IMG/VR virus record: IMGVR_UViG_2698536480_000003
DNA length: 16,051 nt
Direction: 5' to 3' (one strand)
Origin: a virus
Taxonomy: Duplodnaviria; Heunggongvirae; Uroviricota; Caudoviricetes
A program made the position numbers and the translations under genes. Under the pieces are notes generated by a model. The model did no database searches and was not told where the DNA came from. It saw nothing but the letters and a program-made list of their open reading frames with translations. This document shows, piece after piece, positions 1 to 14,770 of this stretch (within the stretch, counting starts at the first letter, position 1; every line of letters begins with the position of its first letter).

Positions 1-144
1 TTTTATGACGGCGGCAGAATCATAAAGCACCTCATTACCCTTGCCACCGCCTCGCAGAACGGGCATTCCCTGTTCCTGCCAGTTCTGAATGGTACGGATA
101 CTCGCACCGAAAATGTCAGCCAGCTGCTTTTTGTTGACTTCCAT
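1..144 (-). CDS. nohA: Terminase small subunit (lambda Nu1-like), N-terminal 48 codons only; the gene continues past the window start
   Basis: Minus-strand translation from ATG at 144..142 gives MEVNKKQLADIFGASIRTIQNWQEQGMPVLRGGGKGNEVLYDSAAVIK, recognised from memory as the lambda Nu1 N-terminus. The track ORF 3..209 is in a different frame and is not this gene. Confidence 0.85.
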   Translation of the reverse strand, partial: MEVNKKQLADIFGASIRTIQNWQEQGMPVLRGGGKGNEVLYDSAAVIK

Positions 145-321
145 TGTTCATTCCACGGACAAAAACAGAGAAAGGAAACGACAAAGGCCAAAAAGCCCGC
201 TTTCAGCACCTGTCGTTTCCTTTCTTTTCAGGGGGTATTTTAAATAAAAACATTAAGTTACGACGAAGAAGAACGGAAACACCTTAAACCGGAAAATTTT
301 CATAAATAGCGAAAACCCGCG

Positions 322-333
322 AGGTCGCCGCCC
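322..333. other. cos cohesive-end site (cosN core aggtcgccgccc, reverse complement of the lambda GGGCGGCGACCT end), flanked by cosB-like sequence toward Nu1 and right-end/cosQ-like sequence toward 540
   Basis: The reverse complement of about 145-340 matches the remembered first ~190 nt of the lambda genome, and 334-537 matches the remembered last ~200 nt of lambda in reverse complement. Confidence 0.8.
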
Positions 334-532
334 CGTAACCTGTCGGATCACCGGAAAGGACCCGTAAAGTGATAATGATTATCATTTACATATCACAACG
401 TGCGTGGAGGCCATCAAACCACGTCAAATAATCAATTATGACGCAGGTATCGTATTAATTGATCTGCATCAACTTAACGTAAAAACAACTTCAGACAATA
501 CAAATCAGCGACACTGAATACGGGGCAACCTC

Positions 533-766
533 ATGTCAACGAAGAACAGAACCCGCAGAACAACAACCCGCAACATCCGCTTTCCTAACCAAATGATTGA
601 ACAAATTAACATCGCTCTTGAGCAAAAAGGGTCCGGGAATTTCTCAGCCTGGGTCATTGAAGCCTGCCGCCGGAGACTGTGCTCAGAAAAAAGAGTTTCT
701 TCTGAAGCAAACAAAGAAAAGAGTGACATTACTGAATTGCTCAGAAAACAGGTCAGACCAGATTGA
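533..766 (+). CDS. ynfO: Small basic protein, 77 aa, probably a ribbon-helix-helix-like DNA binder (YnfO family)
   Basis: ATG at 533; N-terminal basic stretch followed by RFPNQMIEQINIALEQ (strand-helix pattern typical of RHH regulators); same position and size as Qin ynfO from memory. Confidence 0.65.
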   Translation: MSTKNRTRRTTTRNIRFPNQMIEQINIALEQKGSGNFSAWVIEACRRRLCSEKRVSSEANKEKSDITELLRKQVRPD

Positions 767-823
767 AGCAATTTAGATAATCGTGCAGACTACGCCCCCT
801 CATATCACATGGAAGGTTTATCT

Positions 824-1240
824 ATGGATCAGGTAGTCATTTTTAAACAAATATTTGATAAAGTTCGAAACGATTTAAACTATCAATGGTTTTATTCTGA
901 GCTAAAACGTCACAATGTCTCACATTACATTTACTATTTAGCCACAGAGAATGTTCATATTGTATTAAAAAATGATAATACAGTGTTATTAAAGGGCCTA
1001 AAAAACATTGTGTCTGTCAAATTTTCAAAGGATAGGCATCTTATAGAAACGACCTCTAATAAGCTGAAATCCAGAGAGATCACATTTCAGGAATACAGAA
1101 GAAACCTTGCTAAAGCAGGAGTTTTCGGTGGGTTACAAATATCCACGAACAAAAAAGATATTACTATACCTTTGATAATTCATTACTATTTACTGAAAGC
1201 ATCCAGAAAACTACACAGATCTTACCACGCTAAACCATAA
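824..1240 (+). CDS. ydfO: DUF1398-family protein (YdfO/YbcV-like), 138 aa from the internal ATG (143 aa from the track start at 809)
   Basis: ORF 809..1240; GGAAGG Shine-Dalgarno 5-6 nt upstream of the ATG at 824 makes that the likelier start; order after ynfO matches Qin. Confidence 0.7.
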
Positions 1241-1384
1241 CGTCCGGCTTCTCTCACTCCTGAGCCGGACTGCATTGGTTTAATAAAAACCATCAACAAT
1301 TGTGATTTAGATATTCGGAACCATTCAAATATAACAAAACCCCGTAAAAACGAGGTTTATGGATAAATTTTATTATTGAATACA

Positions 1385-1558
1385 TCAGATTAAATTAATC
1401 TTGACATCATAGCTTTCAAGACCCGTCATTTTTTCCCGTGCGGTAAACTGAATACTGGTAACTTCTTTCCCGGTCTTTTTCTTAAGTTCAATAATTTTTT
1501 TTGTTATATATTCAGAAATATCTGCTTCTGCTTTTGTTTTTAAGTTTTCAATATTCAT
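1385..1558 (-). CDS. gnsB: GnsB (Gns family, secG-suppressor/unsaturated fatty-acid phenotype), 57 aa
   Basis: Hand translation of the minus strand: (M)MNIENLKTKAEADISEYITKKIIELKKKTGKEVTSIQFTAREKMTGLESYDVKINLI*. AGAGGA Shine-Dalgarno upstream. Absent from the ORF track because it is under 60 aa. Confidence 0.85.
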   Translation of the reverse strand: MNIENLKTKAEADISEYITKKIIELKKKTGKEVTSIQFTAREKMTGLESYDVKINLI

Positions 1559-1729
1559 CATTTCCTCTTTTAGTCTGTTATGACTTTCCAGTTACACAGT
1601 AAGTCGATTATATGGTGCAAACGTGTAAAAGATAAGATGAAACATCGCAATAATCAACATACGATAGTCTAAATTTTACACAAACAGACAAAGAGAATTT
1701 TCCTGAATTATCAATGCAATAGCATCAAA

Positions 1730-1885
1730 TCAACTCAAGAGCCTTATTGCTGCTTCCAGAATTTCTTCTGAAGTAACATGTCGATCCGCGGCTACATAAA
1801 TGACTTTATGATCTCCGGTCAGAGATGGAAACCCTGCGGCCATTACAGTAAGGTGTGTTTTTTCGCCATTTGGATATTCACGCAT
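1730..1885 (-). CDS. ynfN: Small protein YnfN-like, 51 aa (MREYPNGEKTHLTVMAAGFPSLTGDHKVIYVAADRHVTSEEILEAAIRLLS)
   Basis: C-terminal part of track ORF 1730..2002. The track start lies inside the cspI terminator hairpin, so an internal ATG (1885, or 1957 for a 75-aa form) is preferred. Size matches my memory of YnfN; start uncertain. Confidence 0.45.
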   Translation of the reverse strand: MREYPNGEKTHLTVMAAGFPSLTGDHKVIYVAADRHVTSEEILEAAIRLLS

Positions 1886-2002
1886 GATGGTGTTAACTCC
1901 AGTCATCGCTGGCACTACCACTGCTGGTTCAGAGTTAAAAAAAACTATGATTTTTTTCATGATGTTACCGTAGTATGTGAGTATCCATCGAATAGACACC
2001 AA

Positions 2003-2026
2003 GCAAAAAAGCTCCCGAAGGAGCCT
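2003..2026 (-). terminator. Rho-independent terminator downstream of cspI (stem gctcc/ggagc, loop cgaa, followed on the minus strand by a T-run)
   Basis: Hairpin at 2011-2024 with A6 at 2005-2010 on the plus strand, which is a U-run after the hairpin on the minus transcript. Confidence 0.6.
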
Positions 2027-2231
2027 TCATTTTCACTTTTTTAAATCCAACGACAGACGGCTGGCATTTAAGTATTGTGAAATATTATCAAATGTAATCA
2101 TCATTGATTTACAAAAGATACATTTTGCCCCGAAAGGATTCATGTCAGAAACATCAAAAGATGATGTTCTATACTGGGAACCATGACAACACGGGCATCT
2201 AAAGTGAATATGGTTTGTAATATTGTCTACC

Positions 2232-2444
2232 TCAAAGCGCCACTACATGAACAGCGGCAGGACCTTTAGGTCCGTTCTCAATACCAAATTCAACTTCCTG
2301 ATTCTCAGTTAATGTTTTGAAATCGTTGCTCTGAATTGCTGAGAAATGGACAAACACATCTTTGCTGCCATCTTTCGGCGTGATGAAACCAAAACCTTTT
2401 TCAGGGTTAAACCATTTCACTAAACCAGTCATTTTGTTAGACAT
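2232..2444 (-). CDS. cspI: Cold-shock protein CspI (CspA family), 70 aa
   Basis: [70 protein letters not shown] with RNP1/RNP2 motifs; csp-type leader upstream (AAAGGUAAUAAUUAUG). Confidence 0.95.
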
Positions 2445-2806
2445 AATTATTACCTTTTGAAGAAATTAGCCCTTGGGCAGAATGGTCCGAAAAAAAATAT
2501 CAGAGAGAAAAACCAACAAGGAAATCTCAAGAGGTACAAATAATAAAATTATAACAATGACTGCTTCAGATAAATTTGTAACAAACCAGAACACCATTAA
2601 CGCATGATTAACCACCCATAGCAAGGATTACTTTTGTAAAGAAAAACACAGCAATGAAAGAATAGCTTTATTTATTAATAAAACGTGTCATTCTGATTAA
2701 GACCTTTTATCTTACCCTTAAGATTTCAGGAATTTTGGCTCATGGAAGAGTCCTTTTTATTTAAATTTTACATTCCGCGATGTAAATGTTCCGATTTAAT
2801 ATTACC

Positions 2807-3830
<1,024 letters not shown>

Positions 3831-3834
<4 letters not shown>

Positions 3835-4142
3835 AGATATTTATGATGAGGACGCTCGTGCTTATTGGCAGGATTTTCAATCTTAAAGGAGTACTGATGC
3901 TGCAGATAAGACTCAACTTTTTCTGACAATTTTTCTGCTACTTCCAGGAAGACTTGCCGGACGCTCCTTCTGGCTGCTGCCTCATAAAACTCCAGCGCAG
4001 CTCCTTCAACACGGTCCATGGCGACATCCAGGTCAAAAATTTCACCGTCAAAGCGTTCTTTGTCCTGTAAGGCTACAGTTACCGTAACTTTATTCTCAAA
4101 ATTACGGACTCCTTTCACAACCAGTTCATAGTCTTGAGTCAT
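3831..4142 (-). CDS. ydfR: DUF1327-family protein inside the lysis cassette, 103 aa
   Basis: ORF 3831..4142 with ATG start, sitting between holin and endolysin as in Qin. Confidence 0.75.
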
Positions 4143-4146
4143 TGGA

Positions 4147-4362
4147 TTACTCTCCTCTCGCAGCCTTACGCCTGTCTTCTTTAATCTTGAAATAAAGATT
4201 TGTCAGATACGTCAGCAGGCCAAAAACCAGGCTACCCAGCACACCGATTGCAGCCCACTGTGACGGAGTTACTTTATCGAGTAACTGCAATGCCCAGAAA
4301 CCAGCATTACCCGCCGATGTGCCATAGGCAACACCTGTTGTTAACTTATCCATTGATTTCAT
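4147..4362 (-). CDS. essQ: Class II holin / pinholin (phage 21 S21-like), 71 aa, with MKSM dual-start motif
   Basis: [71 protein letters not shown]: two transmembrane helices and a charged C-terminus. The track ORF extends upstream to 4437 from a non-ATG start. Confidence 0.9.
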
Positions 4363-4581
4363 ATCCTCACCCCGATGTACACGGATGGTGCAATATGTTT
4401 GAAAAGATCGGAGTCTACGGGGTAGTTTTGACAGCACACGTTGTTCTCAACGGCGCTAAAAAAACATACACATTAAAAATGTGGGTAATTATTTTGAAAG
4501 AAAGTCATATATAAAATAATAATACGAGAAATGTTTTCATATTTAGTGTACTGTATACGGCCATTTATACAGGAAAAGCCT

Positions 4582-4752
4582 ATGTCAGAACGTAAAAACT
4601 CAAAATCACGCCGTAATTATCTCGTTAAATGTTCCTGCCCAAACTGCACCCAAGAGTCAGAACACAGTTTTTCAAGAGTACAAAAAGGTGCCCTTTTGAT
4701 CTGCCCTCATTGCAACAAAGTATTCCAGACAAATCTTAAAGCTGTAGCCTGA
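4582..4752 (+). CDS. ynfU: Small zinc-ribbon protein (CxxC...CxxC), 56 aa
   Basis: MSERKNSKSRRNYLVKCSCPNCTQESEHSFSRVQKGALLICPHCNKVFQTNLKAVA; AGGAAA Shine-Dalgarno 5 nt upstream of the ATG at 4582. Symbol is from memory of Qin small proteins and is not certain. Confidence 0.55.
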   Translation: MSERKNSKSRRNYLVKCSCPNCTQESEHSFSRVQKGALLICPHCNKVFQTNLKAVA

Positions 4753-4811
4753 TTGATTTTATTAGTAACAAGTATTTTTTATATTTTAATAATATATTTA
4801 AAGCAGATAAT

Positions 4812-4836
4812 AAAAAACCCGCCTGAGCGGGTTTGA
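4812..4836. terminator. Bidirectional rho-independent terminator (stem aacccgc/gcgggtt, loop ctga) with A-run on one side and T-run on the other
   Basis: Hairpin 4816-4833 preceded by aaaaa and followed by ttt; it can terminate ynfU (+) and the cspB transcript (-). Confidence 0.7.
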
Positions 4837-5115
4837 GATTGTGGTGCTTTTTGTGGGAGTCATCCACTTACGCACTTTGTTTTGCCATGCCAGCAGTTAG
4901 CTTCTGCTGTAAAACTATTCATGCAGCAAACCTGCACTTCACCACAATGGTTAGCATACTTTTCCTGATTAAGATTTTGCCAAATATGCTAGCCATTGTT
5001 TCATGTATTGGACCTCCTTACTTTTTATTAAAGAGATCCAATATTCACTACTCTGTCCGTATCTCTACTCAGGCATCAGCCTTCTTCGTTATCGTATACA
5101 GACGAGCGATGAATT

Positions 5116-5331
5116 TTAATCAGTAATGATGACATTTGCTGCTGCAGGACCTTTAGCACCACTCTCTATAGAGAAGGTAACCTTTTGACCTTCAAATAAG
5201 GTTCGATAATTATCATTCTGAATCGCAGAAAAATGCACAAACACATCTTTACTACCATCAACAGGAGAAATAAAGCCGAAACCTTTATCAGCGTTAAACC
5301 ATTTTACTAAACCAGTCATTTTATTTGACAT
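5116..5331 (-). CDS. cspB: Cold-shock protein CspB (CspA family), 71 aa
   Basis: [71 protein letters not shown]; long leader upstream with cold-box-like and GCCGAAAGGC elements. Confidence 0.95.
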
Positions 5332-5631
5332 TCTACATTCCTTAACTTGAGCCTTTCGGCATAAATGGTTTGCATAACAGAAACGACTTCGTACTTAATT
5401 GGAGAGACTCAAAGAAGGAATAAGTGAATAACACCTGAAATGAGAACTGCTTTAGTAAACTACTTCGTATATCGTCTGTTCTTCAAACCGACGCAATCAT
5501 TAACGCATAGTTGAACATATGAAGCAATGTTTATTTTAGACATCCAGCCATCTTCAACCCCATCAAAAAACTATAGCTTTCTTCAGGAACGTGTGTATAG
5601 TGCGCCAAGTTATCAGTATTAAGGAATTTTT

Positions 5632-5844
5632 TTGTCCCGTAAAATGACAGGAATTGTCAAAACCTTTGACGGCAAAAGCGGCAAGGGTCTTATCACCCCA
5701 TCCGATGGTCGTATCGATGTCCAGCTTCATGTTTCAGCGCTCAATCTCCGCGATGCAGAAGAAATTACCACCGGATTACGCGTGGAATTTTGCCGGATAA
5801 ATGGTCTGCGTGGCCCTTCAGCTGCCAATGTTTACCTTTCATGA
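5632..5844 (+). CDS. cspF: Cold-shock-like protein CspF (CspA family, divergent paralog), 70 aa
   Basis: [70 protein letters not shown]; the first codon is TTG with AAGGAA Shine-Dalgarno 5 nt upstream; divergent from cspB. Confidence 0.9.
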
Positions 5845-5898
5845 GCTATATTAAAGCTTTAATTTCAGGCCCCATCGGATCACACATGGAGAGTTTTT

Positions 5899-5988
5899 AT
5901 GAATAACCCCGTCTGTCTTGATGACTGGTTGATTGGCTTTAAAAGCTTATGCTGTACTTTGGCCGTAATAGCTCTGCTAATAATATAA
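5899..5988 (+). CDS. Candidate 29-aa hydrophobic peptide ([29 protein letters not shown])
   Basis: GGAGAG Shine-Dalgarno at 5888-5893, 5 nt before the ATG; C-terminal transmembrane-like stretch. Not in the ORF track because it is short. Confidence 0.3.
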
Positions 5989-6135
5989 TAAGCAGACTCA
6001 TTGTGTTTAGGGACATTGTACTGGAAGAAAACATTTTAAACATCAGGCAAATAACCAAGTCACCAGCTAAATAATAAGTTAACAGACATGAGTCCCGGGA
6101 TGAGATTCAACATTACCATTGCCCCATTTAAAGCA

Positions 6136-6162
6136 CAAAACCCGCTCATCAGCGGGTTTTCT
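6136..6162. terminator. Bidirectional intrinsic terminator; on the minus strand it is in the position of the lambdoid late terminator tR'
   Basis: Stem aaacccgct/agcgggttt with loop catc at 6138-6159; U-rich tracts follow on both strands. Confidence 0.7.
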
Positions 6163-6205
6163 ACTTTTTCTTAACGTCGGGTATACAAAGCCCATCGTTG
6201 AAAAA

Positions 6206-6234
6206 ATTTTATCCATATTTTTTGAAAAATGCAA
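6206..6234 (-). promoter_or_regulatory. Sigma-70 promoter (TTGCAT-17nt-TAAAAT) immediately downstream of the Q gene: candidate PR'-like late promoter
   Basis: Minus-strand -35 at 6234..6229 and -10 at 6211..6206 with a 17-nt spacer; about 30 nt after the quuQ stop and about 40-60 nt upstream of the terminator hairpin. Confidence 0.55.
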
Positions 6235-6265
6235 ACATCATGTCGCCATCTTCAGCAAAAATCAT

Positions 6266-7018
6266 TTATCTCGTCACCTTCCTCAATTGCGCTTCCGCGT
6301 ATGCTTCTTCCTGCCAGCACTTTGTTACCAGTTTACCAATGACGTCCGCATACCCCTTATACCACTGATAATCGGTCAGGTCTGGTACCAGCTTCTGGAC
6401 ATGACGTCGTGCCAGCGTGGTCGGTAAACGACTAAACCGGTTTCCATTACAACGCCCACAAATCTTATATACCGGTACGCCATGAAACCGGGTTCTTTTT
6501 TCATCCAGAACAATCCCTTTACCCTTACACCCTCTGCACGCTGTGCTGGCTTCGCCCTTACCATGGCAATGCTGACATAGTTCCTTCACCCATTCTTCCT
6601 TGATTACAGATTCCCCGCGTCTGTAGTGTTTCACCACTTCGCGCAATACATTATAAAATCCCGTACCTGAACAATGCTCACAGCGAGCCTTACTTGCCGC
6701 AGACCTGGAGTAATCAGCAAAGGCAAAACTCACGAGGTAAGGAATAATCTGTAACCGGATTTCTTCACTCAATTTGTTCAATGTCGGGTTATCCAGTGCC
6801 ATCGCGTAATTTAGCAGGCCTTCAATCGCAAACTGAGGGTCCTGAACACCAACTTTTGCCAGAAATAAGGCCAACCCAAGTGGTGCTTTCGACTGCACCA
6901 TCCCCTGCGCTGCCATTACATCCGTAATTGTTAAACAACCGGTGCCTGTCGCTGGAGCGTCATCGCTCAATTTTGGAGATTTTGGGGAGTAATATTTTGG
7001 TAAGGCTTCAAGGTTCAT
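6266..7018 (-). CDS. quuQ: Late-gene antiterminator Q (zinc-binding, multiple CxxC motifs), 250 aa
   Basis: MNLEALPKYYSPKSPKL... with CEHCSGTG, CQHCHGKG, CRGCKGKG and CGRCNG motifs. ATG at 7018 is preceded by GGAG; the longer track ORF (7048) starts at TTG and overlaps ydfU. Confidence 0.85.
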   Translation of the reverse strand: MNLEALPKYYSPKSPKLSDDAPATGTGCLTITDVMAAQGMVQSKAPLGLALFLAKVGVQDPQFAIEGLLNYAMALDNPTLNKLSEEIRLQIIPYLVSFAFADYSRSAASKARCEHCSGTGFYNVLREVVKHYRRGESVIKEEWVKELCQHCHGKGEASTACRGCKGKGIVLDEKRTRFHGVPVYKICGRCNGNRFSRLPTTLARRHVQKLVPDLTDYQWYKGYADVIGKLVTKCWQEEAYAEAQLRKVTR

Positions 7019-7031
7019 GCTCGTTCTCCAC

Positions 7032-8081
7032 TTACGCCAGTACGCCAATTGCCAGCGCGCGATCGATAAAACGAAATATCAGCTCCAGTTGAGAGCCATA
7101 CTTATCTTCAAATGCCACTGTATCCGTATGCAGCTCGTTGTGATGCTTTCTGCACAAAGGCAACACAAAGAGATCATGTGCTTTTGTTCCCATTCCGCCC
7201 TGCCCGTGACCAATCAGATGATGCGGATCGTCGGCTGGCATACCGCAGCAAGCACACGGCTGTGTCTTAACCCAACGTGTGTATTTCTCCTTAACCCAGC
7301 GGCGACGTTTAGGCAGCTTCATGAAAGATTCCGGAGACTCTGGATCAACGGTGATGCTTACCACCGTCTTTTCCTGTGGTGATTTTTGTTGCTGGTGGGC
7401 GTAAGGCAACGGTGCAAGATTTTTTGTGCGTTGTTTCAATATGCTGGTGGCGGTCTGCTCTCCCGGTACGATGTCGCTTTCGCGGTACACCGAGCAGATT
7501 TTTTCCGCTGGTAATCCCAGCGAACGACGCGATACAGCCTCAGGTAGTGCATCCACCACCTGATTGCAGACCGCCCACCAGGATAATTCAGCCAAAGATA
7601 ATTCCCGCTCCTGCGTACCGCTTATTGCGTGACGGATGACGTCAATCACCCATGCTGTCAGATTTTGTTGAGCAAGCAGCTCCAGTGATTCCGATGTCTG
7701 GTCACGCAGTTGGTTGTCGCAGTGCCAGCACAACACCATTGCGCCGGTACCATAACGGTGAATGACTGTTTCAGTGTGATGGTAATCGCCATTAGGCCAC
7801 TGGCAGGATGTAACATGACGTAATAGCCAGTCGGACAATGCGCCAACGCCGCCAGCAGCACGAATCACCCGTTCGTTACTAAAAAACGGCAGCAATGTTT
7901 TGTCTTCCGCCAGCGGCTGGCGAACGGCAGGAACGACTCCGGATGGCAGATTACGCATGCTTTTTGGTTCCGGTTCCACCAGCACTCGAGGATTATGAAA
8001 TATCTGTATGGATTCACGGCCCGGCTTAAGGACCACCAGCCCAAGCTCAGGCACCAGAACAGGTCTAAGTAATACCCGCAC
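7032..8081 (-). CDS. ydfU: DUF968-family protein with Cys/His (HNH-like) motif, 349 aa
   Basis: C-terminal CACCGMPADDPHHLIGHGQGGMGTKAHDLFVLPLCRKHHNELH; preferred start is GTG at 8081 with GGAGG 4 nt upstream (the track start at 8120 is also GTG and has no Shine-Dalgarno). Confidence 0.75.
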   Translation of the reverse strand: MRVLLRPVLVPELGLVVLKPGRESIQIFHNPRVLVEPEPKSMRNLPSGVVPAVRQPLAEDKTLLPFFSNERVIRAAGGVGALSDWLLRHVTSCQWPNGDYHHTETVIHRYGTGAMVLCWHCDNQLRDQTSESLELLAQQNLTAWVIDVIRHAISGTQERELSLAELSWWAVCNQVVDALPEAVSRRSLGLPAEKICSVYRESDIVPGEQTATSILKQRTKNLAPLPYAHQQQKSPQEKTVVSITVDPESPESFMKLPKRRRWVKEKYTRWVKTQPCACCGMPADDPHHLIGHGQGGMGTKAHDLFVLPLCRKHHNELHTDTVAFEDKYGSQLELIFRFIDRALAIGVLA

Positions 8082-8082
8082 G

Positions 8083-8361
8083 TTACCTCCAGATCCGTTG
8101 CTGGAAAGTGCGGGACGCACGTGGTGGGCGTTCGGAATAAGGCAGCCTGACAGAGATTATCCAGTGCCGATAGTCGAGACTGAGAGCTTTCTTAACCTCG
8201 AACCCGCGCCTGCGGTAAGAATGAATCAGCCATTCGGCCTGTTCTGCAGTGCATGGAGGGTGCTGGAACCATTCAGACTTGAATGCGTGAGAATACCGCC
8301 CGTGCGTGCAGGCAAGAACGGGCGAATTATCAGAATTGTAATATTTTGCGTTGCGTGCCAT
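8083..8361 (-). CDS. Hypothetical 92-aa Cys/His-containing protein whose stop is one nt from the ydfU start (translational coupling)
   Basis: ATG at 8361 with GGAG 8 nt upstream; stop TAA 8085..8083, then ydfU GTG at 8081. Sequence MARNAKYYNSDNSPVLACTHGRYSHAFKSEWFQHPPCTAEQAEW... Family not recognised. Confidence 0.5.
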   Translation of the reverse strand: MARNAKYYNSDNSPVLACTHGRYSHAFKSEWFQHPPCTAEQAEWLIHSYRRRGFEVKKALSLDYRHWIISVRLPYSERPPRASRTFQQRIWR

Positions 8362-8427
8362 CGGTTTTCTCCGGTGGCACGGTGTTACTCAGCGGGAGTT
8401 CAGCCCCGCGCAAGATTGTAGATGAGT

Positions 8428-8679
8428 TTATTCTCCTGAAAAAGCAGAAAAGCCAGCTTTTATTCCGATCTCTTTCAATGCCTGTAATGAAGTGACAAAC
8501 TCACCTTCGCGCAAGATAAATCCGTCCGTGACCCGAGCATCCACAAAATTAATTAACGCAGCCCCATTCTTTCGCAAACACATAATGCGGTAATGACTAA
8601 CAAGATTTCCATTTTCAACGCACACAGCATAGAGGCCATCTTCACAAAAAATTTTACGCAGTTCTTCGATGTTCATCAT
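8428..8679 (-). CDS. rem: Small protein, 83 aa, likely Rem
   Basis: ORF starts MMNIEELRKIFCEDGLYAVCVENGNLVSHYRIMCLRKNGAALINFVDARVT...; AGGA Shine-Dalgarno upstream; length and position (between ydfU and hokD) fit my memory of Qin rem, but the sequence itself is not verified. Confidence 0.5.
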   Translation of the reverse strand: MMNIEELRKIFCEDGLYAVCVENGNLVSHYRIMCLRKNGAALINFVDARVTDGFILREGEFVTSLQALKEIGIKAGFSAFSGE

Positions 8680-8795
8680 CAGAATCCTTCCGGATAATTA
8701 GCTCTCCCCTTTAAGGGACCATCCCTCTTATCCCTGCGCGCTACTTAAGTATTTTTGATTCTATTCCGGCACCGTCCAGAACTTCAAACGCGTTG

Positions 8796-8828
8796 AAAAT
8801 AAAAACAAAAACCCGCCGAAGCGGGTTA
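8796..8828 (-). terminator. Rho-independent terminator downstream of hokD (stem aacccgc/gcgggtt, loop cgaa, then T-run on minus)
   Basis: Hairpin at 8810-8827 preceded on the plus strand by aaaataaaaacaaaa, which is a U-run after the hairpin on the minus transcript. Confidence 0.7.
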
Positions 8829-8895
8829 AGTGCGGGTGCGTTGAGGATGCCTGCCACATCAGAGGTGGCGAGGGATTTCTCCCCCGCCGGGTCTC

Positions 8896-9051
8896 TTACT
8901 CCTCAGGTTCGTAAGCTGTGAAGACAGCGACCTCCGTCTGGCCGGTTCGGATTCGTACCTCGCAGAGGTCTTTCCTCGTTACCAGTGCCGTCACTATGAC
9001 GGTTAAACAGATGACGATCAGGGCGATTAACATCGCCTTTTGCTGCTTCAT
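8896..9051 (-). CDS. hokD: Hok-family type I toxin HokD (RelF), 51 aa
   Basis: Hand translation: MKQQKAMLIALIVICLTVIVTALVTRKDLCEVRIRTGQTEVAVFTAYEPEE*. Absent from the ORF track because it is under 60 aa. Confidence 0.9.
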   Translation of the reverse strand: MKQQKAMLIALIVICLTVIVTALVTRKDLCEVRIRTGQTEVAVFTAYEPEE

Positions 9052-9122
9052 AGCCTGCTTCTCCTGTCAACGCAAAGCAGAAGTGTCACCTTCGGTGCGA
9101 AACAGAGATGTCATGCTTTGGT

Positions 9123-9410
9123 TCAGAGAATGCGTTTGACCGCCTCGCTATATACTTCCGAGCGTTCTCTTTTCCCAACAGAAATCACGAAAACGACAAC
9201 TTTCTCGTCTATAACCTGGTATACAAGGCGATAGCCTGAAGACCGGAGCTTAATCTTGTAACAATCAGGCATACCACGGAGCTTGTTTGCTTCAATCCGG
9301 GGTGACTCAAGTACTTCAACCAGCTTCTTTTTCAACTGTTCACGTACCGTCGAGCCCAGCTTTCGCCATTCCTTTAGTGCCCGCTCGTCAAAATCCAGAA
9401 AATACGCCAT
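9123..9410 (-). CDS. relE: Type II toxin RelE (ribosome-dependent mRNA endonuclease), 95 aa
   Basis: MAYFLDFDERALKEWRKLGSTVREQLKKKLVEVLESPRIEANKLRGMPDCYKIKLRSSGYRLVYQVIDEKVVVFVISVGKRERSEVYSEAVKRIL; start overlaps the relB stop (TGATG). Confidence 0.95.
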   Translation of the reverse strand: MAYFLDFDERALKEWRKLGSTVREQLKKKLVEVLESPRIEANKLRGMPDCYKIKLRSSGYRLVYQVIDEKVVVFVISVGKRERSEVYSEAVKRIL

Positions 9411-9649
9411 CAGAGTTCATCCAGCGTCACACGTACTGGCTTAGGATTACGAAGCCGTTCTTTCACTATCTCCACAAGTTCAGCATCTTCATCACTCAGG
9501 AGTGTCTGTTTGAACGGCAAGCGTTCATTGTCAGCGATATACTCGAGCATGAGACGAAGCGCTTCAGAAGGAGTTACACCCATTTTTTCAAGCGCGGCGT
9601 AAGAACGCGCTTTAAGTTCATCGTCAATACGCAGGTTAATGCTACCCAT
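9410..9649 (-). CDS. relB: Type II antitoxin RelB (RHH family), 79 aa
   Basis: MGSINLRIDDELKARSYAALEKMGVTPSEALRLMLEYIADNERLPFKQTLLSDEDAELVEIVKERLRNPKPVRVTLDEL. Confidence 0.95.
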   Translation of the reverse strand: MGSINLRIDDELKARSYAALEKMGVTPSEALRLMLEYIADNERLPFKQTLLSDEDAELVEIVKERLRNPKPVRVTLDEL

Positions 9650-9660
9650 GTCTTACACCT

Positions 9661-9686
9661 CTTGTAATTACAAATGTCATTACAAG
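9661..9686. promoter_or_regulatory. relBE operator-like inverted repeat (cttgtaatta ... tcattacaag) in the relB promoter region
   Basis: Inverted TTGTAAT/ATTACAA hexad-type repeats matching 9 of 10 positions, 12-37 nt upstream of the relB start. Confidence 0.55.
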
Positions 9687-9979
9687 TATCGCACTACAAC
9701 ATGCTTAGGGCAAGTCACGAAGGAAGTCAGAAAGTAGTCGTAAGAACGGTGATCACTGTCCGCTTTGTGCCAGGAGCAGCCATTGCTAAGTCCATCCTGT
9801 ATTGTGCAGGTCAGCTCGTTTTTAAAGAGTCCGGCCATCATCTTACTGGTACAGACACCATATACTTTGTGACGGTCAGGCTACATATGCACAACTCAAC
9901 TTATTCATCTATTTTTTGCTTTAGCATGTCAGTGTTGCTTTCTCGTCGGCGGGTGAGCGGTGACCTGACCTGTCGATAA
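9674..9979 (+). CDS. ydfV: Questionable ORF, 101 aa, divergent from relB and overlapping its operator (YdfV-like placement)
   Basis: ATG at 9674 lies inside the relO repeats; no clear Shine-Dalgarno; position and size are similar to Qin ydfV as I remember it. May not be expressed. Confidence 0.3.
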   Translation: MSLQVSHYNMLRASHEGSQKVVVRTVITVRFVPGAAIAKSILYCAGQLVFKESGHHLTGTDTIYFVTVRLHMHNSTYSSIFCFSMSVLLSRRRVSGDLTCR

Positions 9980-10131
9980 AGGAACGTAACACGTTTTATG
10001 CAACACCCGCATGCGGCAGAAAATTATTGCCGAACGTTTACCCCTGTCAACAAGCTTTACTTTCTGAGGCGCGCCAGCCCGCGAGGAAAACAATCTGAAC
10101 ATCAAACAATTAATGACACAAGAAATACGAT

Positions 10132-10158
10132 TAAAGATTTTTTTGTGCATGCCGATAG
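10132..10158 (+). promoter_or_regulatory. Sigma-28 (FliA) class 3 flagellar promoter: TAAAGATT-11nt-GCCGATAG
   Basis: Close match to the FliA consensus TAAAGTTT-N11-GCCGATAA, 24 nt upstream of the flxA ATG with AAGGAG Shine-Dalgarno between them. Confidence 0.75.
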
Positions 10159-10181
10159 TGCTTTTTTAAAAGGAGAAATCT

Positions 10182-10514
10182 ATGTCTGTCACAATTCAGG
10201 GAAATACCTCAACCGTTATTTCAAACAACTCCGCCCCGGAAGGAACATCAGAAATAGCCAAAATCACAAGACAAATTCAGGTGCTGACTGAAAAGCTTGG
10301 GAAAATCTCATCGGAAGAGGGGATGACGACACAGCAGAAAAAAGAAATGGCTGCATTGGTACAGAAGCAAATTGAAAGCCTCTGGGCTCAACTGGAGCAG
10401 TTGTTAAGGCAGCAGGCAGAGAAAAAGAATGAAGACGCGACAGTTCAGCCTGATAAAAAAGAAGAGAAAAAAGACGATACAAATACCGCTGGCACCATTG
10501 ATATTTACGTCTAA
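10182..10514 (+). CDS. flxA: FlxA (FliA-regulated protein), 110 aa
   Basis: MSVTIQGNTSTVISNNSAPEGTSEIAKITRQIQVLTEKLGKISSEEGMTTQQKKEMAALVQKQIESLWAQLEQLLRQQAEKKNEDATVQPDKKEEKKDDTNTAGTIDIYV; sigma-28 promoter upstream. Confidence 0.9.
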   Translation: MSVTIQGNTSTVISNNSAPEGTSEIAKITRQIQVLTEKLGKISSEEGMTTQQKKEMAALVQKQIESLWAQLEQLLRQQAEKKNEDATVQPDKKEEKKDDTNTAGTIDIYV

Positions 10515-10528
10515 GTGACAGCCGTATT

Positions 10529-10552
10529 GTGGCCCTCATCGGGCCACTTTTC
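10529..10552 (+). terminator. Rho-independent terminator after flxA (stem tggccc/gggcca, loop tcatc, then cttttc)
   Basis: Hairpin at 10530-10546 followed by a T-rich tract, 15 nt after the flxA stop. Confidence 0.6.
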
Positions 10553-10801
10553 GCCATCAGCCTTTTCTTTAAAGACATATTATCTTTGTATCATTTCTGA
10601 TAGTTAACATTACAAGATATAAGTAATGGACGCACTCCCAATTAGTCTATTTAAATCGCCACGAGTTTAACTGACAACCCATGATCAATTATGAATTGCA
10701 ACTATTTCTGTAGTCACTTTTGTGGGGACAGTCCACAAAACTGCCAACTTCCGCTTCTTGCTCTTAGCGGACATTAGCATAGGCTATTTACCATAACGCC
10801 T

Positions 10802-12444
10802 CATTACGCGCACCGCCCAGACTGACTCAGCGCGTTTCTGGCATATCCCCGGTAAAACAAGTAACAAACCACCCGAAAATGAACACCAGAAACGCGACTT
10901 AAGAATCTACCCTATGAATGGATATGCACTCAACCGAATCGATCTTGGTTTCAATCTTTTTTATCGGGATCAGGCTTCTTTTTAGGTAACTTCGGGGGCT
11001 TAACTTGCTGATGACTTTGCGTTCGGCGCGTAAGCCAGGGATGGTCAGCTTTAGGTTTAACATAGTATTTTGAGCGTAAATCAATACGGGCATTATCCAC
11101 TCGTTCATGGACACTCTTTTCATCATCCAGTGGTATAGGCTCCGGGCCATCAACATACTTTTCCCAGCCCAGCGCTTTCCCGTCATACAGAACGTTAATT
11201 TCACCGTCAAAGTTCTCGCATACAGTAACAACCGAATGCCTAAGTCGATATCCCCGGCCCTCACTGCGTACCTGAAACGCACTGCTTTTGTACTGGAAAG
11301 TGAGATTTTTAGACAGAACGCGCTTCGCCTGTAGGCTGAAGATATAACCCAGTTCCTCTTCAGAATGGTGCACATCAAGATGAGCATTATCAGTAGTACG
11401 AGGCGACGTAGCGAACCGGTTGTTATAGGCTTCAATAAAGGTCGGCAACCATGCATTTGCTGTTTCAATATCACTGATATTCTGAAGCCGCATTTCTTTG
11501 ACCAGCCTGTCCTGTAGTGTCTGATTGGCGCGCTCTACCCGCCCTTTTGCCTGCGGGCTGTTGGCATGGATTGGCTCGATGCCCAGTGTCTTTATCGCAC
11601 GAGTGAACTGGGTCAGCTCACCTTCCCGCTCTGGGTTATTTACCCTGAATATACTGTGTCTATCAGAGTAGAGAGCGAGCGGTACGCCATGATCATTAAG
11701 GTAACCCCGGAGGGTTTCCATGTAAGCCCGGGTTGTTTCAGCAGGCACAAAACGCAACGCCATCAACGCACTGGTGGCATCATCAATGAAAACGATCAGT
11801 GTACATCTGGGGCCTCGATTTTCAAACCAGTCATGAGGTGAGCCATCAATCTGGATCAGTTCACCGTAAGATGGTCGTCGCATGCGGCGTTGATATATAC
11901 GGGCAATTTTACGACGGCGTTCACGCCATAACCCCTCTTCTATCATCCACTTTCTGAGAGTTTCAACGGATAAAGATAAACCGTGTATCTCGCGCAATTT
12001 TTCGCACGCAAACGTAGGTCCAAAATCAGCGTAACGGCCTTTGAGGAGTGAAATTACTGTTGCTCTGAATTCAGTAGAAAAGGAATTATTAGGACGCTTT
12101 CCACGTCGGTGGGAAACCAGACCAGAAGGCCCTTCATTTCTATACCGTTGCACCAGACGTTTAACCTGCCGAATAGAAATGCCAATGCGTGCCGCAGCTT
12201 GTTCCTGAATAATCTGAAGTCGGTGGAGTTCCTTATGACTCATCGTAACAGTCTCTTTGATCATGAAAAATCCCCCAGAGAATTGTCTGGGGACATTTTA
12301 GAATGGTTCAAAGGGGACATTACAGCTTGGTGTTAACAATAGCCTGCTTCTCCGTGCCTTTCGGCACGTAAGAGGCTAACCTACATGTGTCTAGCATGAA
12401 ATTGGCCTCAGATTAATGTTAAGCGTCTTGCAGGACGCGTAATG
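10802..12444 (-). mobile_element. Insertion sequence, about 1.64 kb, carrying a single DDE transposase; ends proposed from imperfect terminal inverted repeats (cattacgcg...)
   Basis: 10802-10826 (cattacgcgcaccgcccagac) versus the reverse complement of 12420-12444 (cattacgcgtcctgcaagac): 9 of 9 at the tip, then partial. No clean target-site duplication found, so the exact boundaries are uncertain. Confidence 0.4.
10951..12264 (-). CDS. DDE transposase with N-terminal helix-turn-helix and rve (integrase-core) domain, 437 aa; IS481/ISNCY(IS1202-group)-like
   Basis: N-terminus ELHRLQIIQEQAAARIGISIRQVKRLVQRYRNEGPSGLVSHRRGKRP; catalytic-core-like IQIDGSPHDW ... FIDDATSA ... ANSPQAKGRVER (D, D, E). 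Exact IS family not determined. Confidence 0.8.
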   Translation of the reverse strand: MIKETVTMSHKELHRLQIIQEQAAARIGISIRQVKRLVQRYRNEGPSGLVSHRRGKRPNNSFSTEFRATVISLLKGRYADFGPTFACEKLREIHGLSLSVETLRKWMIEEGLWRERRRKIARIYQRRMRRPSYGELIQIDGSPHDWFENRGPRCTLIVFIDDATSALMALRFVPAETTRAYMETLRGYLNDHGVPLALYSDRHSIFRVNNPEREGELTQFTRAIKTLGIEPIHANSPQAKGRVERANQTLQDRLVKEMRLQNISDIETANAWLPTFIEAYNNRFATSPRTTDNAHLDVHHSEEELGYIFSLQAKRVLSKNLTFQYKSSAFQVRSEGRGYRLRHSVVTVCENFDGEINVLYDGKALGWEKYVDGPEPIPLDDEKSVHERVDNARIDLRSKYYVKPKADHPWLTRRTQSHQQVKPPKLPKKKPDPDKKD

Positions 12445-12598
12445 TTAACTGGGGCTTTTCTCTATCTGCCGTTGGTGTCCATGCCCGAGGCAGATAGCCT
12501 CAAGCGCCCGCAGTCATTCTACTTAACTAAGATTTCCCCGCAAACCGTTTTTGTCCAGCACAGTAAATATCCAACTAAACCAATGGAGTTCGCTGTAT

Positions 12599-12778
12599 TT
12601 ACCGCCAGTATTCAATGCACATGACCGCCATGAACACCCCTAAAAAAAGGGCATTTATATATCCAAATATTAATATCAAAACATCAACTTTTTCCATATA
12701 CCTTGCTGTGAAGATGATGGGCATACATGATGCGAACAACCAGAACGCAACAAACAAAAACTGCAATGCGTTTTTCAT
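12599..12778 (-). CDS. Small predicted two-helix membrane protein, 59 aa
   Basis: MKNALQFLFVAFWLFASCMPIIFTARYMEKVDVLILIFGYINALFLGVFMAVMCIEYWR; AGGAGG Shine-Dalgarno 4 nt upstream of the ATG at 12778. The track ORF 12599..12817 starts at an upstream GTG. Confidence 0.5.
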   Translation of the reverse strand: MKNALQFLFVAFWLFASCMPIIFTARYMEKVDVLILIFGYINALFLGVFMAVMCIEYWR

Positions 12779-13032
12779 TATTCCTCCTACAATCAATGTG
12801 CAATTACATTTAAACACACCTCAATTTGGCCGGACATATAAATATCTAAACCAGAAAAAATCACTTACATAGCGTTACAAACTCTTTAGTCTAAAGGTTC
12901 ATCGTAAAACATTCCCCATACTTATCAGTCCGTTCCGCGCCAGGTAGCTCATTGCCTTATCTGGCAACCTGTAATCAGGTTTCCGCTTTTTCAGTTGGCT
13001 GGTCGTTTAACCGACATAGTTAATCCATTAAT

Positions 13033-13320
13033 CTAGTTGCCGGATGTTGGTGGATTTTCGCGTTTTAGTTGTTCATAAAAGTGCACAGCTTTAACCAGTT
13101 CTTCTGATGTAACTGGGACTGGTGAGGCAGTGAATAAGGCCTGAATTTGATAGTTCGGCCTGTCGTTACAATCCTCTTTTTTCGGTACATATTTCCAGTC
13201 ACCAGACCACTACTTCCCCTGAAAGTCCGTAACGCCTTTTTTCACGTAGCGATATCGCCATGCCACTGGTTTTGCTTGCCCCGCCGTTTCATGCCCTTCC
13301 TGATAATTAATCTCGCTCAT
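13033..13320 (-). pseudogene. Accessory ORF of about 95 codons interrupted by a single in-frame TAG (at 13210-13212)
   Basis: MSEINYQEGHETAGQAKPVAWRYRYVKKGVTDFQGK*WSGDWKYVPKKEDCNDRPNYQIQALFTASPVPVTSEELVKAVHFYEQLKRENPPTSGN*; the frame is intact on both sides of the TAG. Confidence 0.4.
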
Positions 13321-13382
13321 TCATCGCCCCACTCATCACAATATGCTTCGACCGGAGTTTTTCCCGCTTCATAGTCATCACG

Positions 13383-13508
13383 CTAGGATTCGACATCAGC
13401 AGCACTTCCACCGCGTAACTCACCATAGTCCATTAATAGTTCATCCCGCTCTTCAAAACTGATGTTATATTTAGCTGAACAAAAATCAGCCACTTTGTTC
13501 TTCCTCAT
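13383..13508 (-). CDS. Candidate small protein, 41 aa (MRKNKVADFCSAKYNISFEERDELLMDYGELRGGSAADVES)
   Basis: ATG-initiated minus-strand ORF read by hand; in tandem with the neighbouring small ORFs; no family recognised. Confidence 0.25.
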   Translation of the reverse strand: MRKNKVADFCSAKYNISFEERDELLMDYGELRGGSAADVES

Positions 13509-13557
13509 CGTCTTTTATTTCGTGGTATGAGTAATTGCAGTAGTTAAAGAAAATTTC

Positions 13558-13668
13558 TTATGCTCCGTCATGAATTTCCTCAGGTGTTGCGTCATCGTCC
13601 ACTTCGAATACATCCTCAAAATCTCCACCAGCTATTCCCGTTTCAATAATAATTTTGAACTTTCGCAT
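13558..13668 (-). CDS. Candidate small acidic protein, 36 aa (MRKFKIIIETGIAGGDFEDVFEVDDDATPEEIHDGA)
   Basis: ATG-initiated minus-strand ORF with GGAGG and a GC hairpin (gccgccc/gggcggc) upstream; no family recognised. Confidence 0.25.
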   Translation of the reverse strand: MRKFKIIIETGIAGGDFEDVFEVDDDATPEEIHDGA

Positions 13669-13840
13669 TTCACTACCGCCCTTTCGGGCGGCCTCCTGAT
13701 GTTCTGAGGGTGCAGAAATCCATCCGGTTAAGGATTAAATTTTATTTACAGAACTGAATTTAATTATTCAGATATACGTATCTGTAGCCTTACGAATCTA
13801 CTCACTGGATGCCTCTTTCATAAAAATAATCCAGTGGGTT

Positions 13841-14287
13841 TTATCGTTTTTTCCCTGTTCGTTGACAGATAACAGGTTTTCTGTCTGTCAGTGCCAGAAT
13901 CTGGCTTACCGGTATTTGCGTTTCATTCCATTAAAAAATCAGAACGCCGTGCGGCCTCAACACCCGAAAGGCTTCTTTAAATCTCTGTCGCGAATCATCA
14001 CGCCAGGCATCTTTATTCAGCCGTCCATATTTCTTTCCCATCCAGGCGTTATCACCAACACTCTCAAGATGCGGAGGGTCTAATACAACCATCGAAAAAG
14101 ATGCGTCTGCAAATGATAATGCACGAAAATCTGCGATAATGTCAGGGCTGATAATCAAGCGTCTCCCATTGCGTAATGTGTATCCTTCTTTTCTGATATC
14201 GCTGAATATCGCCCGTTCGTCAGACTTATCGAACCAGAACATGCGGCTGCCACAGCACATATCAAGAATGGTTGCCGGTGCACTCAC
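13841..14287 (-). pseudogene. Small SAM-dependent methyltransferase (motif I LDMCCGS followed by DPPH, RsmD/gamma-like order), about 150 codons, interrupted by one in-frame TAA at 13931-13933
   Basis: Track ORF 13931..14287 (118 aa) ends ...RPHGVLIF*, and the same frame continues WNETQIPVSQILALTDRKPVICQRTGKKR* to 13841. Start is GTG overlapping the upstream ORF stop (GTGA). Confidence 0.55.
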
Positions 14288-14454
14288 TGCGCCACGTCCT
14301 GAAAATTACCCTGATAGAAAGCCAGTATGCGCTGCATAACTTCGCTCTTCCGGCACTCGCGACAGATTATGTTTAGGCGACTGTCGTAGCGACGTATTTC
14401 TCCGTCAGGTGATGACCAGATAAGGTCCGGATCAACCACAGCAGGTTTCTTCAC
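14284..14454 (-). CDS. Candidate 56-aa protein translationally coupled to the methyltransferase (GTG start; VKKPAVVDPDLIWSSPDGEIRRYDSRLNIICRECRKSEVMQRILAFYQGNFQDVAQ)
   Basis: GAGGG 5 nt upstream of the GTG at 14454; its TGA stop overlaps the methyltransferase GTG start. The open frame extends further upstream without a standard start codon. Confidence 0.35.
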   Translation of the reverse strand: MKKPAVVDPDLIWSSPDGEIRRYDSRLNIICRECRKSEVMQRILAFYQGNFQDVAQ

Positions 14455-14598
14455 CTTTGCCCTCGAGAGTTTTTTGCGGGCGTTTTGCCAGTCCTTACGC
14501 GCCTGTTCAGAGGGGAATAACCCGTATCCGAAGAGCAGTTAATTGCGCTGAAAGGAATAAAAAAAGGTACGTTAAAAAAGGCCCGGGAAAAATCGTTT

Positions 14599-14736
14599 AT
14601 GGAAGGAAGGGAATATAAGCATGTCGCTCATGACGGTATGCCATGGGATAACAGTCCATGCTTTTACAACCTGGAAGAAATTGATCGCTGGATTGAGCGC
14701 CAGGCATCAGCGAGACCAAGACGTCATCTTACTTGA
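14599..14736 (+). CDS. Excisionase-like C-terminal remnant, 45 aa from the first ATG (MEGREYKHVAHDGMPWDNSPCFYNLEEIDRWIERQASARPRRHLT)
   Basis: The frame is open from 14521 (PVSEEQLIALKGIKKGTLKKAREKSF...) but has no ATG/GTG/TTG before 14599. The GREY and YNLEEIDRWI motifs resemble excisionase-like proteins from memory. Sits immediately upstream of int. Confidence 0.4.
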   Translation: MEGREYKHVAHDGMPWDNSPCFYNLEEIDRWIERQASARPRRHLT

Positions 14737-14770
14737 CTAAAAGCCACACTAACTAATGAGAGAAGTTGAA

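Follow-up and report, generated by a model that had tools for sequence, protein, structure and literature searches.

A PR'/tR'-like unit behind quuQ as the probable late-gene control cassette of the Qin prophage of Escherichia coli

Results and Discussion

The Qin cryptic prophage of E. coli possesses, directly behind the gene quuQ, a PR'-like promoter, a lambda-type pause element and an intrinsic terminator, which together very probably form the late-gene control cassette of a Q antiterminator of the lambda/phi80 type. The arrangement is that of a textbook Q cassette and was previously unannotated. A PR'/tR'-type late unit had been proposed at this place in the preliminary description, and it is supported by the family of the Q protein, by sequence elements that show lambda identity in a lambda-like geometry, by their selective conservation, by the lysis genes located downstream and by an RNA 3' end that Term-seq detected in vivo.

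Gene setting

The DNA analyzed here (the window) is a stretch of 16,051 nucleotides from the IMG/VR virus record IMGVR_UViG_2698536480_000003, of which positions 5000-7200 agree at 100% identity with E. coli K-12 strains, MG1655 among them. In the quuQ/cspF part, the coordinate in NC_000913.3 equals the window coordinate plus 1,636,223, while the lysis-gene annotation of NC_000913.3 was placed on the window with an offset of 224. The features of the region are collected in Table 1. Downstream of the terminator, and on the same strand as quuQ, the late (lysis) genes are found, separated from the terminator by cargo genes, one of which encodes YnfS, a protein that has been detected (PMC6001520). 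None of the RefSeq E. coli genomes listed has an annotation in the interval of the short RNA discussed below, and in an Rfam scan of the window and 13 related loci the only matches above threshold were tRNAs and, upstream of cspB, the cspA thermoregulator.

Table 1. Genes, control elements and RNA 3' ends in and around the quuQ late unit, in window coordinates
Feature	Position	Strand	Basis and remarks
ydfU	7032-8081	-	NC_000913.3 annotation
quuQ (ydfT)	6266-7018	-	NC_000913.3 annotation; stop codon 6268-6266
-35 TTGCAT	6229-6234	-	Sequence; 31 nt after quuQ stop; same as annotated phi80 pR' -35
17-nt spacer TTTTCAAAAAATATGGA	6212-6228	-	Candidate Q-binding element, by analogy with phi80 and lambda
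-10 TAAAAT	6206-6211	-	Sequence; TAAGAT or TAGGAT in relatives
Predicted start A6199 and sigma70-dependent pause element, AACGAT then GGG (+1 to +9)	6191-6199	-	Lambda identity
5'-terminal RNA hairpin AACG.UGGG...CCCG.CGUU	6173-6199	-	Predicted by folding; pairs the first transcript nucleotides
Predicted constitutive PR'-tR' RNA of ~67 nt, 6S-RNA analogue	6133-6199	-	3' end, Term-seq; 5' end, lambda homology
tR'-like intrinsic terminator hairpin	6137-6160 (core 6141-6156)	both	Flanked by A-tract and U-tract
Plus-strand U-tract UUUUCUACUUUUUC	6161-6174	+	Its first four U, 6157-6160, end the extended hairpin
RNA 3' end, LB OD 0.4	6133	-	Term-seq score 103591
RNA 3' end, LB OD 2.0	6133	-	Term-seq score 55368
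RNA 3' end, M63	6133	-	Term-seq score 123305
Second RNA 3' end	5965	-	Term-seq 1642188(-); antisense to ynfS; LB OD 2.0 only
ynfS (29 codons)	5899-5988	+	NC_000913.3; convergent cargo gene
cspF	5632-5844	+	NC_000913.3; convergent cargo gene
cspB	5116-5331	-	NC_000913.3; between terminator and lysis genes
Lysis genes essQ, ydfR, rrrQ, rzpQ/rzoQ	2807-4362	-	NC_000913.3; presumed antitermination targets

The antiterminator QuuQ

The gene quuQ, immediately upstream of the promoter, encodes a protein of 250 amino acids that belongs to Pfam family PF03589 (E = 3.6e-54). According to a previous study, PF03589 corresponds to Q-lambda, PF06530 to Q21 and PF06323 to Q82 (PMC9388147). The only Pfam matches of QuuQ were PF03589 and a DnaJ-type zinc motif, and neither PF06323 nor PF06530 was among them; membership in PF03589 makes lambda, and not 82 or 21, the relevant comparison, so that the qut sites of 82- and 21-type Q proteins, to which the unit was at first to be compared, were the wrong reference for a Q of the lambda/phi80 type. 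QuuQ also matched the structure of Q-lambda (PDB 7ubm, E = 4.6e-36) from end to end, with residues 1-120 and 160-250 aligned. When it was aligned with the Q proteins of phi80, Gifsy-2, lambda and P22, it proved to be full length with all four CxxC motifs intact.

The four CxxCxG motifs of QuuQ represent two predicted zinc sites. They place QuuQ in a long Q subfamily, together with the Q proteins of phi80, Gifsy-2 and several Erwinia, Klebsiella and Salmonella phages, in which a second CxxCxG pair is inserted in the zinc 'arm'. QuuQ shows 93-94% identity to the Q proteins of the isolated phages mEp460 (94%) and 2H10 and of Stx2c-converting phages.

Predicted promoter, spacer and pause element

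The minus strand reads, in order, TTGCAT-17-TAAAAT, a 6-nt discriminator TTTTTC and then AACGATGGG. The promoter-like sequence that had been reported past quuQ is present, at the distance from the stop codon given in Table 1. Its description as near-consensus was an overstatement, as the -35 agrees with TTGACA at three of six positions and the -10 with TATAAT at five of six. A consensus scan of positions 5000-7200 found seven promoter-like sites against 4.7 +/- 2.2 by chance; since such sites occur at about the chance rate, the hexamers alone would not carry the claim of a promoter. The -35 aligns with lambda TTGACT, and it is invariant in 10 related phages.

The 9-mer AACGATGGG at 6199-6191 is identical to lambda PR' from +1 to +9 and is located at the same distance from the -10 as in lambda. 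It is found once in the 16-kb window, where 0.13 occurrences would be expected, and the pause element that it contains (AACGAT and GGG) is invariant in all relatives examined. Because the 9-mer stands at the exact lambda distance from the -10, the start is predicted at A6199 (NC_000913.3:1642422(-)), and the 5' end of the short RNA would, by this analogy, be located there as well. The supplements of Cappable-seq and of Kim 2012 gave no coordinate near the predicted start.

The -10-like element of lambda consists of AACGAT at +1 to +6 and the GGG behind it; through this element, sigma70 keeps the polymerase in a promoter-proximal pause, and Q needs this pause (PMC4005639, PMC9191641). The scrunched-pause consensus of lambda, T+14 N Y+16 G+17 (PMC9191641), is absent from the Qin unit, where the TNYG element instead occurs as TTTG at +11 to +14, indicating that the position of the pause may differ from that in lambda.

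The spacer carries TTTCAAA at 6227-6221, where phi80 has its annotated Q site, TCGCGGA, and where ATTGAAT is found in lambda, whose spacer, the Q-binding site there, also differs in sequence. The upstream half of the spacer thus differs among the Q types of Qin, phi80 and lambda, as would be expected if each Q recognizes its own site.

Terminator and mapped RNA 3' ends

A strong hairpin with a U-tract had been placed within about 50 nt of the promoter, and such a hairpin is indeed present 45 nt past the -10. On the minus strand, its core is CCCGCU-GAUG-AGCGGG at 6156-6141, A-U pairs extend it to 6160-6137, and UUUUGUGCUUU follows. The consensus scan flags this hairpin as a terminator on the plus strand only. 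For the homologous hairpin, the records of SfV and Ayreon carry a terminator annotation.

RNA 3' ends were taken from the curated Term-seq table of Adams et al. 2021 (PMC7815308, Supplementary file 1). The table contains an 'orphan' 3' end at 1642356(-), with the sequence ...AGCGGGUUUUGUGC (PMC7815308), which corresponds to window position 6133(-), 8 nt past the stem, and was recorded in all three conditions (Table 1). In the M63 minus-strand list, its score resembles that of the fabI mRNA end and is about twice that of the hokD end. For the short terminated minus-strand RNA of about 60-70 nt that the preliminary description had called for, a fitting 3' end has been located by Term-seq, while its length of ~67 nt is a prediction that takes the 5' end from lambda homology. 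Since the start rests on homology, the signal at 6133(-) could belong partly or wholly to read-through transcripts of ydfU-quuQ.

The second 3' end, at 5965(-), has a score of 87904 versus 55368 at tR' in the same condition (LB OD 2.0). The local hairpin at this position is weak (z = -0.8), and the end probably reflects read-through of tR'. The U-tract of the Qin allele is short and interrupted (UUUUGUGC), with a U-run of UUUUG versus five to seven U in most relatives, and the terminator tail is one U shorter than in phages 2H10 and Tritos. Given the second 3' end, tR' is suggested to be leaky in stationary phase.

On the plus strand, the hairpin reads CCCGCUCAUCAGCGGG, followed by UUUUCUACUUUUUC, and folds with -15.1 kcal/mol (z = -5.1). 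The same hairpin had been held to terminate cspF as well. The plus-strand T-tract is good, but ynfS intervenes between cspF and the hairpin, which starts 149 nt past the ynfS stop, and the curated Term-seq lists include no plus-strand 3' end between cspF and quuQ. The stem is preceded by GUAGAAAA in Qin, 2H10, HannyBb and Tritos and by UUAAGAA or AUAACAAA in SfV-type and Salmonella relatives; compared with the relatives that lack cspF, the clade with convergent cspF has the better A-rich stretch for supplying the plus-strand U-tract. A good plus-strand U-tract, improved in the cspF clade, keeps dual use plausible, and the convergent cspF-ynfS unit is probably insulated by the hairpin as well. 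As 2H10 and HannyBb, both of them isolated phages, possess the complete arrangement with convergent cspF, antisense late transcription across cspF is compatible with a working phage.

Conservation and distribution

Ten related phages were aligned, among them E. coli phages Tritos, 2H10, Ayreon, mEp460 and HannyBb and an Stx2c-converting phage, Shigella phage SfV, and Salmonella phages 118970_sal3 and F1055. Mean pairwise identity is 100% in the -35, 97-100% from +1 to +15, 95% in the spacer (flanks 73-84%) and 89% in the -10, compared with 84% between the quuQ stop codon and the -35, 73% in the discriminator, 66% from +16 to +39, 51% in the hairpin loop and 45% past the terminator. The conservation profile tracks the functional elements. 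Homology with SfV, mEp460, Ayreon and the Stx2c phage stops at 6137, which is the last base of the extended hairpin, indicating that the Q gene, promoter, pause site and terminator travel as one mosaic module.

The same promoter/pause core was found in at least 121 IMG/VR contigs, with 46 distinct downstream variants, and in 114 of these 121 loci a GC-rich hairpin, which ends at +57 to +62, is followed by a T-rich tail. Of 5426 complete E. coli genomes, 2429 (~45%) possess the unit. A scan of species-representative genomes with the promoter core gave five matches, which belong to Escherichia, Shigella and one probably contaminated bin, so the module is essentially confined to Escherichia/Shigella, plus variants in Salmonella phages.

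Comparison with known Q cassettes

By definition, a Q cassette begins with a Q gene, behind which come PR', a sigma-dependent pause element, a terminator and late genes (PMC9388147), and for the Q-lambda class the Qin locus contains a PF03589 Q gene, the pause element at the sequence level, a terminator with a mapped 3' end, and late genes downstream. The lambda sequence is TTGACT-17-TAAATT-TGACTC-AACGATGGG, to be compared with TTGCAT-17-TAAAAT-TTTTTC-AACGATGGG in Qin. Shared between the PR'-qut-tR'/6S RNA region of lambda and the Qin unit are the position directly after a PF03589 Q gene, the 17-bp spacer, the 6-nt discriminator, the identical +1 to +9, a 5' AACG...CGUU hairpin and an intrinsic terminator before the lysis genes. 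Besides the spacer and the pause consensus, the differences include the -35-like TTGACT upstream of the pause element, which in lambda is contacted by sigma region 4 in the Q-loading complex and is TTTTTC in Qin. The terminated RNA is predicted to be ~67 nt in Qin versus ~194 nt in lambda, and QuuQ, with its extra zinc module, is 33% identical to lambda Q. Unlike lambda, Qin has about 1.8 kb of cargo (the convergent cspF-ynfS, then cspB) between the terminator and the holin gene.

Phage phi80 (JX871397) shares with Qin a long Q with an inserted CxxC module, the -35 TTGCAT of its pR' and a 17-bp spacer ending in ..TGGA. Its record annotates a -35, a Q site, a -10 and a first terminator about 50-75 nt past the start, and the layout of the Qin unit is alike. 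Apart from the Q site, phi80 differs in its pause element, TAACGCT versus AACGAT in Qin, and its Q is 36.5% identical to QuuQ. The late leaders of P22 (gene 23) and Gifsy-2 resemble the Qin unit in having a lambda-family Q and a short leader that starts with AACGATGG(G), forms a 5' hairpin and is closed by a strong hairpin at about +35 to +70; their spacers (lambda-like in P22) and downstream genes differ from those of Qin. At the level of sequence, the Qin unit has everything expected of a cassette that operates in the manner of lambda PR'-qut-tR', and its nearest counterpart in the details is phi80.

By analogy with lambda, the cassette would operate as follows. Without Q, sigma70 RNA polymerase would initiate at the PR'-like promoter, with the predicted +1 at A6199(-), sigma region 2 would recapture the -10-like AACGAT(GGG) at +1 to +9, giving a pause at about +13 to +17, and the polymerase would then stop at the hairpin and U-tract, releasing an RNA of ~67 nt with its 3' end at 6133. 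In the presence of QuuQ, a site in the spacer between the -35 and -10 would be bound, and QuuQ would load onto the paused polymerase and render it resistant to termination. Such a polymerase would cross tR', proceed antisense over ynfS and cspF and past cspB and its 3' end, and subsequently arrive at the lysis genes essQ, ydfR, rrrQ and rzpQ.

The short RNA and its possible function

The predicted 67-nt RNA folds with -26.2 kcal/mol (z = -5.5 versus shuffles) into two hairpins, one at the 5' end and the other that of the terminator, joined by an A-rich linker. In the 5' hairpin, all cells are paired in the 10 phages, as are 259 of 264 cells in 33 IMG/VR variants, where pairing is kept through one-sided changes only; since transitions opposite G or U preserve pairing anyway, this does not amount to statistical support for the hairpin. 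Covariation in the 10-phage alignment, with 92% of the structure paired, was not above the shuffle control. Analogous 5' hairpins are found in lambda, P22, Gifsy-2, phi80 and SfV. In all lambda-family cassettes examined, the hairpin includes +1 to +4 in its stem, and it might have a function of its own, such as stabilizing the 5' end of late mRNA.

There is a small chance that the ~67-nt RNA is more than a by-product, either as a regulator similar to StxS or IsrK or through a shared hairpin that couples the convergent units. In the latter case, the terminator-resistant late transcription brought about by QuuQ could silence cspF-ynfS via antisense RNA or polymerase collision. As for the former, StxS of Stx phage and IsrK of Gifsy-1 are short constitutive RNAs made in lysogens from an antitermination-controlled phage promoter, and they provide a precedent for functional RNAs of this origin (PMC7547250); the Qin RNA is alike by prediction. 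StxS has features of its own, namely RNase E processing to 74 nt, Hfq binding and defined targets (PMC7547250), and no sequence or Rfam relationship between StxS or IsrK and the Qin RNA was found.

That the RNA, besides being a by-product of antitermination, regulates in trans like StxS or in cis like IsrK appears unlikely. This reading would fit with a 3' end that is abundant in three conditions, with a linker (AAGAAAAAGUAGAAAA) rich in A-R-N triplets and with the wide occurrence of the unit in complete E. coli genomes. Against it, the linker is accounted for equally well by its complementarity to the plus-strand U-tract, the 3' tail makes a poor poly-U of the Hfq type, and the would-be seed (+16 to +39) is less conserved than any other part of the RNA. 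Likewise, no Rfam family scored above threshold: the matches to isrK (16.6 bits versus a gathering score of 50), isrJ (25.1 versus 37, in phi80 only) and various leader families were terminator-driven, and they were rejected.

As well, HnrS, a 66-nt sRNA from late regions of EHEC prophages (PMC13502914), was considered as a possible homologue and set aside; the comparison was made by description, and its 99% EHEC/EPEC distribution is a misfit. The HnrS paper names neither antitermination nor PR' (PMC13502914).

Is the cassette functional in Qin?

The cassette might be a fossil, in which PR' fires and terminates but QuuQ is unable to load or is never made, leaving no late-control role in the host. 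Qin is after all a cryptic prophage, the Qin variant of the window is without the dicC-dicA-dicB segment of K-12, and the loss of one U from the terminator tail relative to 2H10 and Tritos would also be in keeping with decay. However, the intact QuuQ, so similar to the Q proteins of isolated and Stx2c-converting phages, and a promoter and pause element identical to those of the isolated phage HannyBb make this very unlikely. Moreover, Qin was reportedly defined via lambda qin hybrids, in which prophage DNA replaced the need for lambda Q, and the titles of two papers (Kaiser 1980; Espion et al. 1983) agree with this.

Finally, it is highly improbable that the hairpin is a shared bidirectional terminator of ydfU-quuQ(-) and cspF-ynfS(+), with fortuitous hexamers and a 3' end that is simply the end of the quuQ mRNA: U-tracts on both sides of the hairpin, promoter hexamers not above chance in the scan and the start-site evidence that was not found would agree with it, whereas the 9-nt identity with the lambda pause element at the exact lambda spacing, the annotated phi80 pR' with the same -35 and layout, the -35, spacer and +1 to +15 as the most conserved non-coding stretches (above the 31 nt that separate the -35 from the quuQ stop), and the abundance of the 3' end under every condition in what is a repressed cryptic prophage argue against it.

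Significance

With the late-control cassette as the preferred reading, the orphan Term-seq 3' end of K-12 at 1642356(-) is accounted for by the tR' that belongs to the late promoter of Qin, for which a start site at 1642422(-) is predicted. The Qin unit would also provide a second natural model for Q-lambda-type loading, in which the lambda pause element is kept while the candidate Q-binding site is different, and it would represent a loading variant that does without the -35-like TTGACT and employs a Q protein with a two-zinc arm.

The same Q/PR'/tR' module is located before tRNA genes in the contig of an Stx2c-converting phage. If stx2c follows those tRNA genes, the strength and leakiness of the module would bear on toxin expression.

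QuuQ and the 5' end of late transcripts

The antiterminator QuuQ carries four CxxCxG motifs, which read as a DnaJ-like module with two predicted zinc sites (Pfam DnaJ_CXXCXGXG, E = 1.3e-08). Q-lambda possesses a single zinc ribbon at the corresponding position, through which it touches sigma region 4 and the Q-binding site. Q proteins of phi80, Gifsy-2, SF10, Fraca, and of Erwinia and Klebsiella phages share this insertion.

With transcript starts assumed by analogy, most lambda-family Q cassettes examined can pair the opening nucleotides of their late RNA in a 5'-terminal hairpin. It closes with AACG...CGUU in Qin, SfV, lambda, P22, Gifsy-2, SF10, and phi80; in Fraca the pairs are AUUAU...AUAAT and in a Klebsiella phage UCGU...ACGA, and the case of Erwinia phage Eho59 is ambiguous. 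Among members of the Qin family, all changes in this hairpin are one-sided. A possible role is to stabilise late mRNA at its 5' end.

Coordinates of the features (window positions unless a locus is named)
Feature	Coordinates	Strand	Remarks
Unannotated 11-codon ORF, MKQWLAYLAKS	ATG 5004-5002	-	Perfect Shine-Dalgarno TAAGGAGGT before the ATG
cspB leader	5100-5492	-	Rfam cspA thermoregulator RF01766, 158.8 bits
Qin 5'-terminal hairpin	6173-6199	-	Compared with loci L002, L012, L013, L014, L016, and L018
QuuQ CxxCxG module	6590-6680 (QuuQ residues 113-190)	-	Pfam DnaJ_CXXCXGXG match
HTH and rve transposase-like ORF, 437 aa	10951-12264	-	Counted in the 3.7-kb segment
Phage integrase	14756-16051 (window end)	+	After the 3.7-kb segment; apparently uninterrupted
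Stx2c_PV98-693 (locus L005) segments	2651-2783 and 5038-5267		Q/PR'/tR' module and tRNA genes

RNA 3' ends around cspB

The most abundant 3' end of the region in the published Term-seq lists lies at NC_000913.3 1641224/1641226(-) (window 5001-5020, minus strand), about 113 nt downstream of the cspB stop, and its scores range from 0.6 to 2.5 million. No hairpin with a U-tract is found at this end, which coincides exactly with the start codon of the unannotated ORF, and one possibility is that a bound 30S subunit protecting the RNA is its source. Another Term-seq 3' end, 1641634(-) (window 5411), falls within the cspB leader.

Comparison with MG1655

The window differs from MG1655, with an identity of 99.87% across 3-11135, after which a different 3.7-kb segment (11136-14891) replaces the K-12 region extending from within ydfW via dicC, dicA, ydfABC, dicF, and dicB up to IS2. 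Unlike the apparently uninterrupted integrase of the window, the corresponding K-12 gene, intQ, is an IS2-disrupted pseudogene.

The late control module in other phages

In one IMG/VR viral contig, a Qin-type promoter and spacer are fused to a lambda-type 6S leader, AACGATGGGTTAATTCGCTCGTTGTGG..., with the fusion point within the common AACGATGGG. The conserved pause element, a sigma70-dependent -10-like sequence at the start of the predicted PR' transcript, apparently doubles as a recombination point between modules. As a separate observation, phage Tritos (L006, 1830/1831) differs from Qin by a 258-bp deletion corresponding to window 5835-6092, which takes out ynfS and the final cspF codons, while PR', tR', and cspB are retained.

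The Stx2c-converting phage Stx2c_PV98-693 possesses the Q/PR'/tR' module as in Qin, located 5' of two tRNA genes, and its Q is 94% identical. Given this position in Stx2c-converting phages, the Qin-type module presumably drives stx2c late expression there.
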